From Ginsengibacter sp. (GTDB taxonomy: Bacteria; Bacteroidota; Bacteroidia; Chitinophagales; Chitinophagaceae): a stretch of 64,000 nt of DNA. Position numbers and translations under genes: made by a program. Each line of letters starts with the position of its first letter. The stretch's first letter is position 1. Below the pieces are notes generated by a model that did not search any database, was not told the DNA's origin, and saw only the letters and a list, made by a program, of their open reading frames with translations. Below are positions 1,793 through 61,056 of this stretch, piece after piece. The DNA lies in NCBI GenBank assembly GCA_039937655.1, contig JBDTGA010000006.1, positions 20,680-84,679 on the forward strand. Direction: 5' to 3'.

Positions 1793-2680
1793 ATGCAATT
1801 ACATTCAATAGATACGGTAGAGAATATATCGCCCGAAGATTTCAAAAATAATTACTATATCCCGAATAGGCCATTGGTAATTACAGGGCTTGCAAAAGAA
1901 TGGCCTGCTTTTAAAAAATGGAACTGGGATTATTTTAAGGAAATAGTAGGCGATAAAAAAGTAGGTCTTTACAACAATGTAAAGAGCGATGCTTATACAC
2001 CTATCAATACGGCGGACGATTATAAAACTTTCGCCGAATATGTGGACATGATTCAGAAGGGGCCGGCTGCATGGCGTATCTTTCTCTTTAATATTTTTGA
2101 CCATGCGCCACAACTTATCAATGATTTTACATGGCCGGAACACTTGATGAAAGGCTTTGTGAAGAAATATCCCATGCTTTTTACAGGTGGCGAATCGTCT
2201 ATTACACACATGCATTTCGACATAGACCTCTCCCACATATTGCATACACAATTTGCAGGGCGTAAAAGAGTATTGCTCTTTCGTCATGAAGAACAACATA
2301 AATTATACAGAAAACCTTTTGAGGTATTGAGCCTTGCTGACTTCTCAAACTATAGTAAGAATAATGGCACTCCGGATTATGAAAAATTTCCCGCGCTGAA
2401 ATATGCCACAGGATATGATTTGATCTTGAATCCGGGCGACACACTTTTTATGCCTGCAGGATACTGGCACCACATGGAATATATTGACTGTGGTTTTGCC
2501 ATGAGCTTACGTGCACTTCAAAGTTCACTTTCCGGCAAAGCCAGAGGTGTATGGAACCTCTTTGGCATGAGAAGTATTGATACCGTTTTAAAAAAGACAG
2601 CCCCAAAATGGTGGTACGATTATAAAATCAAAAAAACTGACCTGTTTGCTTCCCGTGAGTTAGAGAAATTTTCAAACTAA
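1793..2680 (+). CDS. JmjC/cupin-like (cupin_8) domain protein, putative 2-oxoglutarate/Fe(II) oxygenase
   Basis: 295 aa from the first ATG; the track ORF starts 6 nt earlier at TTG. The HxD...H pattern (HMHFD ... YWHHM) and overall layout are typical of bacterial JmjC-like cupins. Confidence 0.7.
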   Translation: MQLHSIDTVENISPEDFKNNYYIPNRPLVITGLAKEWPAFKKWNWDYFKEIVGDKKVGLYNNVKSDAYTPINTADDYKTFAEYVDMIQKGPAAWRIFLFNIFDHAPQLINDFTWPEHLMKGFVKKYPMLFTGGESSITHMHFDIDLSHILHTQFAGRKRVLLFRHEEQHKLYRKPFEVLSLADFSNYSKNNGTPDYEKFPALKYATGYDLILNPGDTLFMPAGYWHHMEYIDCGFAMSLRALQSSLSGKARGVWNLFGMRSIDTVLKKTAPKWWYDYKIKKTDLFASRELEKFSN

Positions 2681-5866: not shown

Positions 5867-6757
5867 TTGAATTCACAACTGAAGGCACATCTGGGGCTGC
5901 TGGGCACTAATCTCTTCTTTGCAATTAATTATAGCGCTATAAAATATTTCACGCACAATCATTATGCAGGCCCTTTTGGAATCAATATTATACGGCTAGC
6001 AATCAGCCTCATTTTATTCTGGACCTTATTTTTATTCAGCAGGCCTGTTACAAAACTTCAGCGTAAAGACATTCCTGCCTTTCTTCTTTGTGCAATTACA
6101 GCTATTGGTCTCAATCAAATGTTGTTTATAAAAGGCCTTGCCTTTACTTTCCCCATTCATGCGGCGCTTCTTACTTTGACCACACCAATACTTATCACCA
6201 TCATTGCAGCAAGGGTACTGAGAGAGAAAATCACGATCGGCAAATCTTTTGGTCTATTGCTCGGAGCTTTGGGTGCAGGTTTATTAATTGGAAACAGGGT
6301 AGTGAGCCCTCCGGGTGAAGATGCTACACTCGGTGACATTTTAGTCATTTTAAGTTCCATTGCCTACACCTTTTACTTCATACTGGTAAAGCCTCTCATG
6401 AAAAAATATTCTCCGGTACAGGTGATCCGATGGATCTTTACATTTGGTTTTTTTATGACTCTACCATTTTGTTTTGAAGAGTTTTCAGCTATTACCTGGC
6501 AGGTTTTCACGCCAAAAGACTGGTTTCTATTGTTTCTTATCGTAGTACCGGGAACCTTTTTTGCTTATATATTCAATGTATATGGGATCCAAAAGCTAAG
6601 CGCTTCAACGGCGGGAATTTATATTTATTCGCAACCTGTTTTCGCAGTGGCGATTGCGATGATCTTTTTAAAAGAAGAACTATCACTCTCTAAGATCATT
6701 GCCGCCGCATTGATTTTTTCAGGTGTGTTCTTGTCAAACAGAAAGAAAGATGATTGA
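5867..6757 (+). CDS. EamA/DMT-family transporter (10-TM permease)
   Basis: 296 aa, hydrophobic throughout, with two EamA-like halves. It has a non-ATG (TTG) start 7 nt after the glycosyltransferase stop. Confidence 0.8.
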   Translation: MNSQLKAHLGLLGTNLFFAINYSAIKYFTHNHYAGPFGINIIRLAISLILFWTLFLFSRPVTKLQRKDIPAFLLCAITAIGLNQMLFIKGLAFTFPIHAALLTLTTPILITIIAARVLREKITIGKSFGLLLGALGAGLLIGNRVVSPPGEDATLGDILVILSSIAYTFYFILVKPLMKKYSPVQVIRWIFTFGFFMTLPFCFEEFSAITWQVFTPKDWFLLFLIVVPGTFFAYIFNVYGIQKLSASTAGIYIYSQPVFAVAIAMIFLKEELSLSKIIAAALIFSGVFLSNRKKDD

Positions 6758-6765
6758 CGGGCTGA

Positions 6766-7242
6766 TTAATCACGATCTTCACTCACACGTACACTTCTGT
6801 TAAAGCTTTCAGCAAGAGAGATCAATGTTTCGGTACGCTCAATCCCTTTTATTTTTTGAAGGTCGTCGTGAAGCACACGACGAAGCTGGTTAATATCTTT
6901 ACAGACAACTTCTATGTACATGCTATAATTTCCTGTTGTATAATTAAGACGTATGATCTCAGGAATCTTCTCAAGTTCTTTGGCTACAGCATCATAAAGT
7001 GAACTTTTTTCAAGGAAAATTCCTACAAAAGCAGTAATATCATACCCAAGTTGATTGAGATTTACTTTTAATTTTTTTCCTTTAACGATACCTAATTCCT
7101 CTAATTTTTTTATTCTTACATGAATGGTACCACCGCTCACAAAAAGTTTCTTACCCAGCTCGGCATAAGGCGTTTCCGCATTTTCGAGCATTTCTTGAAT
7201 AATTTTCAAATCTAATTTATCAATGCTTAACTTAGCTGCCAT
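6766..7242 (-). CDS. Lrp/AsnC-family transcriptional regulator
   Basis: 158 aa with an N-terminal HTH (LDLKIIQEMLENAETPYAELGKKLFVSGGTIHVRIKKLEE) and a C-terminal RAM/AsnC_trans_reg domain. Confidence 0.85.
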   Translation of the reverse strand: MAAKLSIDKLDLKIIQEMLENAETPYAELGKKLFVSGGTIHVRIKKLEELGIVKGKKLKVNLNQLGYDITAFVGIFLEKSSLYDAVAKELEKIPEIIRLNYTTGNYSMYIEVVCKDINQLRRVLHDDLQKIKGIERTETLISLAESFNRSVRVSEDRD

Positions 7243-7330
7243 AATTAATTTATATTTTAGATGAAAATTACAATAATACTAAATTTTTTAGATAAAATCT
7301 AAATTTTAATCATTTTAATTAAAATATTTT

Positions 7331-7358
7331 TTTGATATTGGCATTATTATTAGATTTG
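7331..7358 (+). promoter_or_regulatory. Bacteroidota-type promoter candidate for the tRNA-like gene
   Basis: TAGATTTG at 7351-7358 matches the TAnnTTTG -7 consensus. TTTG at 7331-7334 is a possible -33 element. The predicted TSS is about 7365. Confidence 0.4.
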
Positions 7359-7380
7359 CATCATAATCGTTCTTTAACAT

Positions 7381-7552
7381 TGTGGGGTGATGAAATTTTT
7401 GGCAGACATGCCCTCTTGTCTCGGGGGTGAGGATCACAGGATAAACATAGCATAGAGCCGGATTGATAGCAATATCAGTCCGACCAGGGTCGACCACTGA
7501 ACTTTGTGTTATGGCTAACTGCCTCGTGAAGGTTCGAACCCTTCCCCTACAG
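7381..7552 (+). ncRNA. tRNA-Asp-like RNA (anticodon GUC) with a ~100-nt structured insertion at the variable-arm position; not a canonical tRNA
   Basis: Hand-folded cloverleaf. The acceptor 7381-7387/7545-7551 is 7 bp with one G-U. U8 is present. The D arm is 7390-7393/7406-7409 with GG in the loop. The anticodon stem 7411-7415/7423-7427 is 5 bp with loop UUGUCUC. The T arm GAAGG-UUCGAAC-CCUUC is at 7528-7544, and the discriminator is G7552. The 7428-7527 insert is closed by a 5-bp helix (7428-7432/7522-7526) and holds a 10-bp GCAA-capped hairpin (7459-7482). Confidence 0.6.
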
Positions 7553-7558
7553 CTTTTA

Positions 7559-7596
7559 AAAAAGCCTTTGTACCATCCTACAAAGGCTTTTTTATT
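7559..7596 (+). terminator. Rho-independent terminator immediately after the tRNA-like gene
   Basis: A 12-bp stem AAAGCCTTTGTA / TACAAAGGCTTT (7561-7572 / 7579-7590) with loop CCATCC, followed by a T-run. An A-run upstream makes it potentially bidirectional. Confidence 0.75.
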
Positions 7597-7724
7597 TGGG
7601 TGATCTATTTACTCTGATCCTATCAAATAATTTTTATAAAAAAGATTGTATCAGGCTATCTTGCATTTTCTTTTCCCTTTATTGACCGAAAGCGTATCTC
7701 GGTTGATTATAATAAATCGTTTGA

Positions 7725-8339
7725 ATGTTCAGTATCATTACCGGTAGTATTATTTTGAGTCTTTTGCATGCTACTATTCCCAATCATTGGTTACCGGTAA
7801 TAGCCATCGGCAAAAAAGAAAAATGGTCGGTATCTGAAGTTACACAAGTCACTTTTATTTCTGCAGTAGCACATGGATTGAGCACCGTCATCATAGGATT
7901 TATACTGGGATTCCTGGGCGCGCAGCTTGCGGATAGAATCGAGTATTTCACTCATTTCATAGCACCCGTTATACTCATTTTACTTGGGCTGCTTTTCATT
8001 TACCGCCATCACCATCACAAGCACTTCCACCTTGATGATAATATTAAAAAGAAGCTATCTAAAAAGAAAATTATTATAGCATTGGTGCTGGCCATGTTCT
8101 TATCTCCCTGTATGGAAATTGAAGCGTATTTTTTACTGGCAGGTACACAGGCCAAATGGCTTATCTGGTTTATTGCCGCATTATACCTGATCATCACTAC
8201 AGCAGGAATGGTTATCCTCGTGAGAGTGGCCTATCTTGGTATATTAAAACTGAACTGGCATTCATTGGAGCACAATGCAGGAATTATCACTGGTATTACC
8301 CTTGTAGCAACAGGAATACTGGCCTTTTTTATTCATTAA
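7725..8339 (+). CDS. NicO/RcnA-like metal (Ni/Co) transporter family membrane protein with a His-rich loop
   Basis: 204 aa with about 6 TM segments. TM1 carries LLHATIPNHW (H-x4-P-x-H type, compare RcnA LHGLEPGH). The central loop is RHHHHKHFH, and an SPC motif sits in TM4. Family assignment is from recalled RcnA architecture only. Confidence 0.6.
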   Translation: MFSIITGSIILSLLHATIPNHWLPVIAIGKKEKWSVSEVTQVTFISAVAHGLSTVIIGFILGFLGAQLADRIEYFTHFIAPVILILLGLLFIYRHHHHKHFHLDDNIKKKLSKKKIIIALVLAMFLSPCMEIEAYFLLAGTQAKWLIWFIAALYLIITTAGMVILVRVAYLGILKLNWHSLEHNAGIITGITLVATGILAFFIH

Positions 8340-58368: not shown

Positions 58369-58372
58369 TCCT

Positions 58373-58388
58373 TGTTTCACGTGAAACA
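58373..58388. repeat. Perfect 16-bp palindrome TGTTTCACGTGAAACA
   Basis: Read directly from the sequence. It begins 5 nt after the ybeY stop codon. Confidence 0.95.
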
Positions 58389-58430
58389 TTCCGTGAGCAT
58401 TACAACAAAACACCTCCTGCATTACCCCAG

Positions 58431-58452
58431 ATATGTTTCACGTGAAACATAT
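58431..58452. repeat. Perfect 22-bp palindrome ATATGTTTCACGTGAAACATAT, with the same 16-bp core as 58373-58388
   Basis: Read directly from the sequence. Its centre is 61 bp from the first copy and about 50 bp upstream of the mnmG ATG. Confidence 0.95.
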
Positions 58453-58491
58453 TCTTCAGCCATAAATTTTCAATTTCGGTATTTTTGCAAA

Positions 58492-60354
58492 ATGTTTTCA
58501 GAATACGACGTAATAGTAGTGGGGGCCGGACATGCCGGTTGCGAAGCAGCAGCAGCGGCTGCTAATCTTGGTAGCAAAACCCTTTTAATAACCATGAATA
58601 TGCAGAATATGGCTCAAATGAGTTGTAATCCTGCTATGGGGGGAATTGCAAAGGGCCAAATAGTAAGAGAAATAGATGCTTTGGGTGGCTATTCGGGAAT
58701 TGTTACCGATGAAACCATGATTCAATTCAGGATGTTAAACAAAAGTAAAGGCCCAGCTATGTGGAGCCCAAGATCACAAAGCGATCGAATGCTATTCTCA
58801 TGGAAATGGCGATTAATGCTTGAAAATACTCCAAACTTAGATTTTTATCAGGATTCGGTAATAGGACTTACCAAAAAGGACGATCTCATAACAGGGGTCA
58901 AAACAGCGATGGGCCACACCATCCTTTCTAAATCAGTGGTATTAACAAATGGAACTTTCCTAAATGGCATTATTCACATCGGTAAAAAGCAATCAATAGG
59001 AGGTAGAATAGCGGAGAAAGCTTCTACCGGCATTACCGAACAATTGGTAGAGTGGGGTTTTGAAAGTAACAGGTTAAAAACGGGGACCCCCGCCCGGGTA
59101 GATGGGCGCTCTCTTGATTACTCTAAAATGGAAGAACAAAAGGGTGACGAAGAAATCACCGGTTTTTCATTCCTGGATACGAAAAAGCCCATTAAGCAAA
59201 AAAGTTGCTGGATCACCTATACAAATAAAGAGGTTCATGAAATTTTGAGAACCGGGTTTGCTGATAGCCCTATGTTTCAGGGAAGAATAAAAGGAATCGG
59301 GCCGAGATACTGCCCAAGTATAGAAGATAAAATAAACAGATTTGCCGGAAGAGAAAGGCACCAACTCTTTATAGAACCAGAAGGATGGGAAACTGTAGAA
59401 GTCTATGTAAATGGCTTTTCTTCCTCTTTGGCCGAAGAGATCCAATATAAAGCACTTAAAAAGATTCCTGGCTTCGAGAATTGTAAGATGTTCCGCCCGG
59501 GTTATGCCATAGAATATGATTATTTTCCTCCTACACAGTTGAAATTTAGCCTTGAAACAAAATTAGTAAAAAACTTGTTTTTTGCGGGGCAGATCAACGG
59601 TACTACCGGATATGAAGAAGCGGCGTGTCAGGGAATTATCGCAGGAATTAATGCCCATTTGAATATTGCACAGCAACAACCTTTTGTGCTAAAGAGAAAC
59701 GAGGCTTACATTGGTGTACTCATTGATGACTTGATCAATAAAGGAACCGAGGAACCATACAGAATGTTTACCAGTAGGGCAGAATACAGAACTTTACTGA
59801 GGCAGGATAATGCCGACATTCGCCTTACTGAGAAGAGCTACAGAATAGGCCTCGCCTCACAGGAAAGAATGGAGAAAGTGTTGGAGAAGAAAAAGGAGAT
59901 CAGCCAGATCATCCAAAAATTACACGAAATAAAATTGGACCCACACGAAATAAATCATTTCCTTTCAGAAAATTCATCAACACCTGTTTCTCAAAAAATG
60001 AGGGCTTCGCAAATTCTCTTACGTCCCGGCATTAATATGGAAAATATGGTGAAATCTATTTCATCCATCGAAAAGAGTATTGGGTGTTTTTCAAAAGAAG
60101 CACTCCAACAGGCAGAGATTCAGTTAAAATACGAAGTCTATATTCAGAAAGAACAGGAGATGGTAACCAAAATGAGTGCACTTGAAAACCAGATTATTCC
60201 TGACAACTTCAACTACGAAAATATTTCTTCTATCTCCAATGAAGCACGGCAAAAGTTTAAAAAGATACGTCCGCAAACCCTGGGACAGGCCAGCAGAATC
60301 AGTGGTGTAAACCCAAGTGACGTACAAATCCTGATGGTTTATATGGGAAGATAA
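58492..60354 (+). CDS. mnmG: tRNA uridine-5-carboxymethylaminomethyl modification enzyme MnmG (GidA)
   Basis: The start was taken at MFSEYDVIVVGAGHAGCEAA (FAD motif). The 40 upstream codons of the track ORF cover the palindromes and are not GidA-like. A TATTTTTG -7 box at 58480-58487 implies a very short or absent leader. Confidence 0.9.
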   Translation: MFSEYDVIVVGAGHAGCEAAAAAANLGSKTLLITMNMQNMAQMSCNPAMGGIAKGQIVREIDALGGYSGIVTDETMIQFRMLNKSKGPAMWSPRSQSDRMLFSWKWRLMLENTPNLDFYQDSVIGLTKKDDLITGVKTAMGHTILSKSVVLTNGTFLNGIIHIGKKQSIGGRIAEKASTGITEQLVEWGFESNRLKTGTPARVDGRSLDYSKMEEQKGDEEITGFSFLDTKKPIKQKSCWITYTNKEVHEILRTGFADSPMFQGRIKGIGPRYCPSIEDKINRFAGRERHQLFIEPEGWETVEVYVNGFSSSLAEEIQYKALKKIPGFENCKMFRPGYAIEYDYFPPTQLKFSLETKLVKNLFFAGQINGTTGYEEAACQGIIAGINAHLNIAQQQPFVLKRNEAYIGVLIDDLINKGTEEPYRMFTSRAEYRTLLRQDNADIRLTEKSYRIGLASQERMEKVLEKKKEISQIIQKLHEIKLDPHEINHFLSENSSTPVSQKMRASQILLRPGINMENMVKSISSIEKSIGCFSKEALQQAEIQLKYEVYIQKEQEMVTKMSALENQIIPDNFNYENISSISNEARQKFKKIRPQTLGQASRISGVNPSDVQILMVYMGR

Positions 60355-60982: not shown

Positions 60983-60983
60983 G

Positions 60984-61056
60984 TGGTGTGGGGCGGGATT
61001 GAACCGCCGACACAAGGATTTTCAGTCCTTTGCTCTACCAACTGAGCTACCGCACC
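60984..61056 (-). tRNA. tRNA-Phe (anticodon GAA)
   Basis: Hand-folded reverse complement: GGTGCGG TA GCTC AGTTGGTA GAGC A AAGGA CTGAAAA TCCTT GTGTC GGCGG TTCAATC CCGCC CCACACC A. All arms are canonical except a C5-A68 mismatch. CCA is not encoded. Confidence 0.9.

Follow-up and report, generated by a model that had tools for sequence, protein, structure and literature searches.

A 64,000-nucleotide (nt) stretch of a metagenome-assembled Ginsengibacter sp. genome (Chitinophagaceae; assembly GCA_039937655.1, contig JBDTGA010000006.1, positions 20,680 to 84,679; hereafter "the window") encodes on its plus strand an RNA that combines a complete transfer RNA (tRNA) cloverleaf with a large structured insertion in the variable region. 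Our comparative analysis, based on more than 150 homologues from genomes and metagenomes of Chitinophagales and Cytophagales, reveals a genuine family of small RNAs, strongly conserved and apparently not described before, which is very probably a stand-alone tRNA mimic functionally coupled to the AsnC-like regulator encoded divergently beside it. The RNA body spans 7381–7553 and comprises tRNA positions 1–73 (7381–7552) followed by an invariant C74 (7553). An initial annotation made from the window alone had read the locus as a stand-alone, non-decoding tRNA-Asp-like RNA. This reading is supported by the lack of an Rfam match, by covariation in the insert and by the unrelated genes downstream, and the acceptor stem, U8, the D, anticodon and T arms and G73 all lie where that annotation had placed them. 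The elements of the cloverleaf, all on the plus strand, are as follows.

7381–7387/7545–7551: acceptor stem UGUGGGG/CCCUACA, 7 bp with one G-U pair, in which 100% of alignment cells pair
7388: U8
7390–7409: D arm, with a 3-bp stem (7390–7392/7407–7409) plus A·A and a loop that holds A14, A15 and G18G19 (7401–7402)
7411–7427: anticodon arm, with stem 7411–7415/7423–7427 and loop UUGUCUC (7416–7422)
7418–7420: anticodon GUC, followed by U37 (7421) and C38 (7422); loop positions 33–38 are invariant
7528–7544: T arm GAAGG-UUCGAAC-CCUUC, with stem 7528–7532/7540–7544 and loop UUCGAAC
7552: discriminator G73, invariant

Homologues were collected in three ways. The transporter gene that neighbours the RNA in the window was searched in species-representative genomes, which yielded 77 loci (individual loci are cited by L numbers), 19 of them with a full RNA and two with a cut copy; in this set the RNA is nearly invariant except for the hairpin at 7459–7482 and the terminator, both of which vary while remaining paired. 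A scan of metagenomes with the pattern ACCAGGGTCGACCAC N{26,50} GTTCGA added 120 loci, about 116 of which are true homologues and the other four chance matches of high GC or in coding sequence, and because this set was fished with the ACCAGGGTCGACCAC...GTTCGA bases, we claim conservation of those bases solely from the protein-anchored loci. For the third set, the most divergent AsnC protein (L149) served as query and contigs were fetched by protein, free of any ascertainment by RNA pattern. Three high-GC metagenome matches (L104, L119 and L132) were discarded as chance matches within coding sequence. A viral origin was likewise rejected, the single IMG/VR match (L083) being another chance match of this kind.

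The proposed structure is strongly supported by covariation. In a structure-blind MAFFT alignment of 103 distinct sequences (A3), 97.2% of the cells of the cloverleaf and insert are paired and 22 of 50 pairs have changed on both sides. None of 500 shuffled alignments was as good on four of five measures, the fifth, the count of further pair types, being reached by 32; in controls where the 3' partner was slid by 1–3 columns, only 42–53% of cells paired. A second alignment (A5) of 36 distinct protein-anchored sequences was fitted to the model and is therefore biased towards the structure, a bias of which A3 is free; here 97.3% of cells pair and 26 of 49 pairs are compensatory, including three of the five in the T stem and two in the acceptor stem. 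All four cloverleaf arms contain at least one compensatory pair, with 97–100% pairing. In the acceptor stem, compensatory changes occur at pairs 3-70, 6-67 and 7-66, while pair 4-69 alternates between G-U, A-U and G-C. Among the 103 sequences, the D-stem pair 7391–7408 is UA in 98 and CG in 5 with no breaks, the anticodon-stem pair 7413–7425 is CG in 96 and UA in 7, its neighbour 7414–7424 is UG, UA or CG with no breaks, and the T-stem pair 7529–7543 is GC in 63, AU in 38 and GU in 2. The presence of G-U pairs, several of them invariant, places the RNA on the plus strand, opposite asnC. Coding potential was considered and rejected: length differences between homologues (123–184 nt) are not multiples of three, and substitutions track the pairing.

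Individual positions are strictly conserved as well. The 36 protein-anchored sequences share U1-A72, G2-C71, U8, G9, A14, A15, G18, G19 and G26 in the 5' half and acceptor stem, U33, G34, U35, C36, U37, C38, U44 and U48 around the anticodon and variable region, and G53, U54, U55, C56, G57, A58, C61, G73 and C74 towards the 3' end. This covers the whole canonical tertiary set (U8, A14, R15-Y48, G18G19, G53-C61, U54U55C56, A58 and U33); the D-loop nucleotides A14, A15 and G18G19 and the acceptor pair G2-C71 are likewise invariant, U1-A72 is present in all 76 and in all 36 distinct sequences of two alignments, and the anticodon loop reads YUGUCUC across the family. The D stem, which the initial annotation had given as 3–4 bp around a loop containing GG, consists of 3 bp plus A·A, with the GG at 7401–7402. 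That annotation had further judged the tRNA features to be far beyond chance. The region indeed folds better than every one of 200 shuffles (z = -4.6, RNAfold), the homologues contribute the compensatory changes described above, and covariance model R1, built from A3, scores the window copy at 209.9 bits and also matches genuine tRNAs with the insert skipped, namely the tRNA-Phe of the window (23 bits) and the tRNA-Cys of L209–L211. The 3' flank reads G73-C74-(A/U), similar to that of the genuine tRNA genes examined, both of which lack an encoded CCA: this tRNA-Phe (60983–61056, minus strand; A73-CAAAA) and the tRNA-Cys of L209 (1745–1816, plus strand; U73-CAAAC). The tRNA-Phe itself carries a C5·A68 mismatch in its acceptor stem.

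Between the anticodon and T arms, where canonical tRNAs have a variable region of 4–5 nt or an arm of up to about 24 nt, the window copy carries an independent domain with the following parts, again on the plus strand.

7428–7527: variable-region insert, 99–100 nt, composed of P1, P2, an internal loop, P3 and a three-way junction with P4 and P5
7428–7432/7522–7526: P1, UGAGG/CCUCG, which closes the insert; compensatory changes
7437–7439/7519–7521: P2; compensatory changes
7440–7445/7515–7518: asymmetric internal loop GAUAAA/CUAA, nearly invariant in both orders
7446–7514: isolated C-G pair closing the internal loop; CG in 90 and UA in 13 of 103 sequences
7448–7457/7502–7511: P3; compensatory changes
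7459–7482: P4, a variable 10-bp hairpin with a GCAA tetraloop and the heaviest covariation
7485–7487/7497–7499: P5, a 2–3 bp stem closing the 9-nt loop GGUCGACCA (GGUYGACCA, a quasi-palindrome)
7488–7495: palindrome GGUCGACC

The UGAGG/CCUCG closing helix, the perfect GCAA-capped hairpin and the palindrome had all been pointed out in the initial annotation, which had also proposed looking for covariation of the insert helices in relatives; they prove to be conserved and to carry compensatory changes. Among the 103 sequences, the P1 pair 7430–7524 is AU in 74, GC in 17, GU in 10 and UA in 2, and the P3 pair 7452–7507 is AU in 78 and GC in 25; nine of the ten P4 pairs have changed on both sides, and the P5 pair 7486–7498 is AU in 68 sequences and GC in 5. 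Across the family the insert measures about 47–100 nt and always retains P1, P2 and the GAUAAA/CUAA internal loop, which may resemble the UAA/GAN motif. In Chitinophagales, the distal part forms the three-way junction of P3, a hypervariable and often GNRA-capped P4, and P5. In several Cytophagales P4 is short or missing (it is absent from L206, L212, L214 and L216), and the P5 loop, conserved in the protein-anchored loci, is missing from L216. Of the insert, this shortest member (2228–2350, minus strand; 123 nt) keeps just P1, P2, an internal loop of sequence GAAAAA/CUAA and a hairpin of 6 bp, so neither P4 nor the GGUYGACCA loop is universal. The GGUCGACC/GGUUGACC element is self-complementary and lies within the 9-nt loop, so that loop-loop dimers are conceivable.

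The possibility that a repeat or mobile element has broken up a tRNA gene, leaving a pseudogene in decay, would find some footing in a few damaged copies: a transposase-like open reading frame (ORF) has inserted into the D loop of the RNA in L195 (~1548–1722), the RNA is truncated at its 5' end in L140 (~2180–2350), and only a 3' remnant (CCCCTACAGC plus terminator) persists upstream of the transporter in L028. The intact copies, however, are near-invariant across two orders, with compensatory changes in every helix, and the window contains no further copy of the insert, which tells against the repeat origin that the initial annotation had considered. On conservation and covariation, the pseudogene explanation is ruled out, and we assign it a negligible probability.

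Standard annotation tools overlook the gene, as the initial annotation had anticipated. In the window, ARAGORN calls only the tRNA-Phe at 60983–61056 and nothing at the RNA, and deleting the insert does not restore a call at default thresholds. Rfam 15 at gathering thresholds likewise reports the tRNA-Phe alone. At E ≤ 10, a 451-nt slice gives only weak, terminator-driven matches ("Thr_leader"), and neither the window locus nor its divergent homologues match any family otherwise, with nothing for tRNA (RF00005), transfer-messenger RNA (tmRNA), cobalamin (RF00174) or group I intron models, in line with the earlier suggestion that the architecture belongs to no described family. By the standards of tRNA finders, the RNA is thus not a tRNA, given that neither ARAGORN nor Rfam makes a call. 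A full-text literature search, whose coverage left out most subscription journals, found no description of it. The RNA fails defining features of canonical tRNAs (variable-region size, purine at position 37, detectability), tmRNA, YrlA, intron-bearing tRNA genes and riboswitches.

A genuine decoding tRNA-Asp, with the insert either kept or removed as an intron, would explain the GUC anticodon, the full cloverleaf and the complete set of tertiary nucleotides. It would also fit the tandem arrangement of two to three near-identical copies, about 45–80 nt apart as in tRNA gene clusters, in L141 (1–334, plus strand), L152 (8294–8725, plus strand) and L212 (1831–2365, minus strand). Nevertheless, we regard it as very unlikely. 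The insert is under strong purifying selection and covaries like a mature structure, there is no group I intron signal at E ≤ 10 in Rfam 15, and the gene, in contrast to those of housekeeping tRNAs, has a linked regulator. To our knowledge, bacteria possess no splicing system for an intron in the variable position. Position 37, a purine in canonical tRNAs, is an invariant U, and U1-A72 is invariant where bacterial tRNA-Asp has a strict G1-C72 (PMC9976931).

The RNA and the asnC-like gene occur together across Chitinophagales and Cytophagales, and the divergent AsnC-like gene is the only constant neighbour of the RNA. In the transporter-anchored set, all 19 loci with a full RNA have a divergent asnC-like gene upstream and the loci that lack the RNA have none; the two loci with a cut copy end at a contig boundary and hold just the 3' part of the RNA. 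In genomes with an RNA-free transporter, the same AsnC protein is encoded elsewhere on the contig, with the RNA adjoining. Consistently, among the RNA-anchored metagenome loci, 65 extend at least 750 nt upstream, and 64 of these contain a divergent AsnC homologue, 62–93% identical and 131–697 nt (median 146) from the RNA. Conversely, the RNA lies divergently upstream in 16 of 16 asnC-anchored loci with enough upstream sequence; loci with the RNA in this set include Fibrella aestuarina BUZ 2 (L204), Rhodocytophaga rosea (L206) and Rhabdobacter roseus (L213), as well as Cytophagales or unclassified metagenome-assembled genomes (L207, L209–L212 and L214–L216). In L137 (262–438), an intact RNA stands with no asnC within 5.7 kb. 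Downstream of the RNA, we found more than 50 unrelated gene families in both orientations; in L078–L082, for example, the gene beyond its 3' end is convergent. This free variation of the downstream genes identifies the RNA as a stand-alone gene and not a leader.

A cis-regulatory leader or riboswitch could be suspected from the arrangement in the window, where the RNA lies upstream of a NicO-like transporter gene and metF and ends in a terminator. As a leader of this operon it is ruled out by synteny: where asnC is absent, the RNA is always missing from the same transporter/metF locus, and the downstream genes elsewhere vary freely, many on the opposite strand. The terminator, moreover, looks constitutive and is followed by a further 128 nt. 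For asnC itself, a leader function conflicts with the G-U pairs, which fix the RNA on the opposite strand, and overall we consider any leader function extremely improbable. The setting described in the initial annotation, between an Lrp/AsnC regulator and a transporter, thus holds for the regulator, which adjoins the RNA; the transporter is not a constant partner.

The regulator and the signals that surround the RNA in the window are listed below.

6766–7242, minus strand: AsnC-like (Lrp/AsnC family) regulator gene, with Pfam AsnC_trans_reg and HTH_24/HTH_AsnC-type domains
7287–7303, strand not applicable: operator-like inverted repeat TTTAGAT-AAA-ATCTAAA in the asnC-RNA intergenic region, read from the sequence
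7351–7358, plus strand: -7 promoter box TAGATTTG of the Bacteroidota TAnnTTTG type
7369–7374, plus strand: GTTCTT hexamer in the predicted 5' leader, kept in most homologues
7559–7596, plus strand: intrinsic terminator, a 16-bp hairpin followed by a U run (RNAfold)

The best NCBIfam match of the regulator is NF008384 (AsnC), at 163.6 bits (E = 2.8e-48) and thus below the 227-bit equivalog cut-off; the next family reaches 65 bits and Lrp 50 bits. Its best solved structure is E. coli AsnC (2cg4, E = 5.5e-34). TAnnTTTG is the consensus of Bacteroidetes promoters, and the box, noted already in the initial annotation, is kept upstream of the RNA in most homologues. The GTTCTT hexamer usually lies 7–9 nt ahead of position 1 and is sometimes displaced by inserts of 20–40 nt. 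The strong terminator described earlier is likewise borne out; its stem changes in sequence between homologues while pairing is preserved. An A run precedes the hairpin and a T run follows it, so that it could stop transcription from both directions. A simple terminator scan of the window does not report this hairpin, probably as a result of A/U extension consuming the T tail. Between asnC and the RNA, homologues carry two imperfect TGAAWWWWWWTCWAT-type palindromes about 31 bp apart, at ~-92/-87 and ~-62/-56 from position 1, which resemble cooperative Lrp/AsnC operator sites. We regard them as putative AsnC binding sites, with the caveat that a TGAAWWWWWWTCWAT-type pattern is not very specific in AT-rich DNA.

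Other neighbours follow the locus less closely. The His-rich membrane protein encoded at 7725–8339 is 100% identical to an NCBI protein of Ginsengibacter sp., has no Pfam or NCBIfam match, is highly conserved and is usually followed by metF; the label "NicO-like" given to it initially finds no backing in Pfam and corresponds to a Joint Genome Institute name (NicO/MntP) only. Its gene has a conserved upstream motif of its own (CTATCTTGCA, within 7600–7724), which is present with or without the RNA. An EamA-family transporter gene (5867–6757, plus strand) lies tail-to-tail with the asnC-like gene, as it does in L002, L003 and L057, and this pairing is not kept beyond close relatives. In Pseudomonas, an Lrp/AsnC regulator controls an adjacent EamA gene (PMC8707732). 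The gidA/mnmG gene (58372–60354, plus strand) lies 51 kb from the asnC-like gene, with no adjacency. These genes adjoin one another in E. coli, together with mioC, an arrangement echoed in the name that KEGG gives to AsnC. In many Cytophagales (L206, L209–L212, L216 and L217), sufB-sufC-sufD, which function in Fe-S cluster assembly, lie directly downstream of the asnC-like gene and are oriented like it, a linkage not seen in Chitinophagaceae. In L209–L211, a tRNA-Cys lies just beyond the RNA.

As to function, several features connect the RNA to aspartate and asparagine. Aspartate identity resides in G73, G34, U35, C36 and C38 and persists when the D and T arms are lost (PMC9976931); all five determinants are invariant in the RNA and, together with G2-C71, make up the tRNA-Asp identity set recognised in the initial annotation. 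Of the odd points listed there, all are seen, and U1-A72 and U37 are invariant across the family. In bacterial tRNA-Asp, the strictly conserved G1-C72 helps to place the 3' end in the aspartyl-tRNA synthetase (AspRS) of E. coli (PMC9976931). The amidotransferase GatCAB of bacteria, for its part, requires U1-A72 and rejects G1-C72 (PMC1635274, PMC2811023). The RNA lacks the first pair of tRNA-Asp and carries the first-pair determinant of GatCAB. As cited in PMC2504300, the effector of E. coli AsnC is asparagine and its classical target is the divergent asnA, which it activates. Among the genomes tabulated in PMC4206432 (Table S1), the Chitinophagales and Cytophagales genera Chitinophaga, Niastella, Haliscomenobacter, Dyadobacter, Spirosoma, Emticicia, Runella and Leadbetterella have gatCAB, asnS and glnS and no asnA, and the listed Flavobacteriia and Bacteroidia have no gatCAB. 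None of aspS, asnS, gatCAB or asnA/B was found among the ~25 large ORFs of the window that were scanned.

From these features we infer a role in AsnC-controlled aspartate-to-asparagine chemistry, and our best overall reading, held tentatively and at somewhat less than even odds, is that of a non-decoding carrier, or a sensor or decoy, in aspartate/asparagine homeostasis. An AsnC-type sensor would bind the AT-rich palindromes and set transcription of the RNA according to amino-acid supply, probably that of asparagine. The transcript would then mature like a CCA-less tRNA, with RNase P cleavage at U1, 3' trimming at G73/C74 and CCA addition. Next, G34, U35, C36 and C38 together with G73 would recruit AspRS and lead to charging with aspartate, U1-A72 would make the product a substrate or ligand of GatCAB, and U37 and the bulky variable-arm domain would exclude it from EF-Tu and the ribosome. 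Charging by AspRS is plausible, if a little less likely than its absence. The complete role of AspRS plus GatCAB in making asparagine is considerably more doubtful. In its fullest form, a dedicated, ribosome-excluded scaffold on which AspRS attaches aspartate and GatCAB amidates it would provide an AsnC-regulated, RNA-dependent route to asparagine in place of asnA, and this too we hold to be rather unlikely; in such a scheme, the GUC anticodon would allow charging even by a discriminating AspRS.

A number of observations weigh against this reading. The minimum-free-energy fold and RNAalifold favour a GGCA/UGCC hairpin with a shifted anticodon stem, and while ARAGORN at default thresholds finds no tRNA in homologues or in three insert-deleted variants, at 80–90% thresholds it reports a "tRNA-His (atg)" that uses this hairpin as the anticodon arm. 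The alternative fold was rejected: across the 103 sequences, 16 of its cells fail to pair and none of its pairs is compensatory, against compensations and at most two breaks for the cloverleaf; the smaller protein-anchored set does not by itself reject it. Further, A10 replaces the usual G10, and U1-A72 in place of G1-C72 may lower charging by AspRS. The class II AspRS approaches its tRNA from the variable-loop side. The tail of GatB also lies near the variable loop (PMC2811023), and an arm of 47–100 nt could clash with either protein. An extra nucleotide 20A is an antideterminant for GatCAB (PMC1635274), and the D loop of the RNA is one nucleotide longer after G19, with four nucleotides between G19 and C23 instead of the canonical three, an extra nucleotide that may correspond to U20A. 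A non-discriminating AspRS would make a separate scaffold redundant. The correlation with gatCAB is at the level of orders and is drawn from other genera, and the strong conservation of the insert points to a specific partner outside this model.

The most serious competitor is a regulatory or scaffold RNA that has the shape of a tRNA but is never charged, and whose tRNA body would serve for RNase P and 3' processing, for stability and as an L-shaped platform. Its working part would be the insert (GAUAAA/CUAA, GGUYGACCA) and/or the anticodon loop, and it could act as a decoy for AspRS, GatCAB, tRNA-guanine transglycosylase or another partner, or dimerise through its palindromic loop. The insert is conserved as strongly as the tRNA body, with an internal loop nearly invariant in both orders and the self-complementary GGUCGACC/GGUUGACC in the 9-nt loop. 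Normal tRNA function would be hampered by U37, A10 and the giant arm, and protein-binding modules are known among other tRNA mimics of bacteria, YrlA for one (PMC4201824). What an uncharged scaffold leaves unaccounted for is the acceptor end, where G73, C74, U1-A72 and G2-C71 are invariant while other acceptor pairs covary, as enzyme recognition of that end would predict. In addition, L216 does without the GGUYGACCA loop, P3 and P4, and complementary targets of the GGGUCGACCAC core are not enriched in the window (12 antisense matches against 12.3 expected). We see this explanation as somewhat less likely than the carrier or sensor reading. An aminoacyl donor dedicated to some other non-ribosomal reaction, such as envelope or lipid aminoacylation or the synthesis of peptide natural products, would combine the complete AspRS identity set with features that exclude decoding (PMC9976931) and would have an analogue in the non-proteinogenic tRNA-Gly of Staphylococcus. 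Yet neither a transferase nor a biosynthetic gene keeps company with the RNA, whose sole constant neighbour is asnC, and we judge such a donor improbable.

If the RNA is real as described, a widespread new class would be added to the short list of bacterial tRNA mimics (tmRNA, YrlA). It would be the first with a complete cloverleaf, a conserved anticodon loop and a large structured variable-arm domain, and the first tied to an amino-acid-sensing transcription factor. If the AspRS-GatCAB route were also true, it would explain a long-noted oddity, namely that Chitinophagales and Cytophagales retain GatCAB where asparaginyl- and glutaminyl-tRNA synthetases already exist, with a tRNA-like molecule serving as a metabolic cofactor outside translation; even a mere decoy or scaffold would offer new structural targets in its conserved insert motifs. 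The family merits an Rfam entry, as genome annotation currently misses the RNA, and the cultured strains Hanamia caeni, Fibrella aestuarina BUZ 2, Rhodocytophaga rosea and Rhabdobacter roseus lend themselves to direct testing.

Comparison with known systems places the RNA between several of them. Like class II tRNAs (Leu, Ser and bacterial Tyr; also tRNA-Sec and allo-tRNAs, PMC5389517), it has a full cloverleaf with all core tertiary nucleotides, an extra helix between the anticodon and T stems and an unpaired position 48. Unlike their arms of ~10–24 nt, its arm measures 47–100 nt and contains internal loops and a three-way junction; moreover, it has U37, escapes tRNA finders and is linked to a regulator gene. 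With the tRNA-Asn and tRNA-Asp of the transamidation pathway (non-discriminating AspRS plus GatCAB; PMC1635274, PMC2811023, PMC4206432), it shares G73, a GUN anticodon, U1-A72 and a link to asparagine supply, which in the case of the RNA would run through AsnC. It differs from them in joining an Asp anticodon (GUC) and C38 to an Asn-type acceptor end, and in its giant arm, U37, A10 and longer D loop. The tRNA genes with group I introns are set apart by an intron that interrupts the anticodon loop and has a core of at least ~200 nt, compared with 47–100 nt in the variable position here.

Among RNAs that work outside decoding, tmRNA (RF00023) is also a stand-alone bacterial RNA in which a tRNA-like acceptor/T-arm module carries a large internal insertion, and it is aminoacylated and not a normal decoder. 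It lacks an anticodon arm and has the alanine identity pair G3·U70, a tag reading frame, pseudoknots and a length of ~350 nt, whereas the RNA described here shows none of these features, has an anticodon arm and a U-A pair at 3-70, and gives no tmRNA match in ARAGORN or Rfam. YrlA and other bacterial Y RNAs (PMC4201824) similarly mimic the D/T elbow of tRNA and are genetically linked to a protein partner; YrlA, however, has no anticodon arm, its ends pair into the stem that binds Ro and not into an acceptor stem, and it adjoins the Ro60 gene (rsr) and not an AsnC-like gene. The non-proteinogenic tRNA-Gly of Staphylococcus, viral tRNA-like structures and mascRNA also use tRNA shape or charging outside decoding, but they lack both a variable-arm domain and a link to AsnC, and they occur in other organisms and contexts. 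Finally, the locus as a whole recalls E. coli asnC-asnA, where an AsnC-type regulator is likewise divergent from its presumed target across a short AT-rich region. Here, the regulator falls below the NF008384 cut-off, and the presumed target is an RNA gene instead of asparagine synthetase A.

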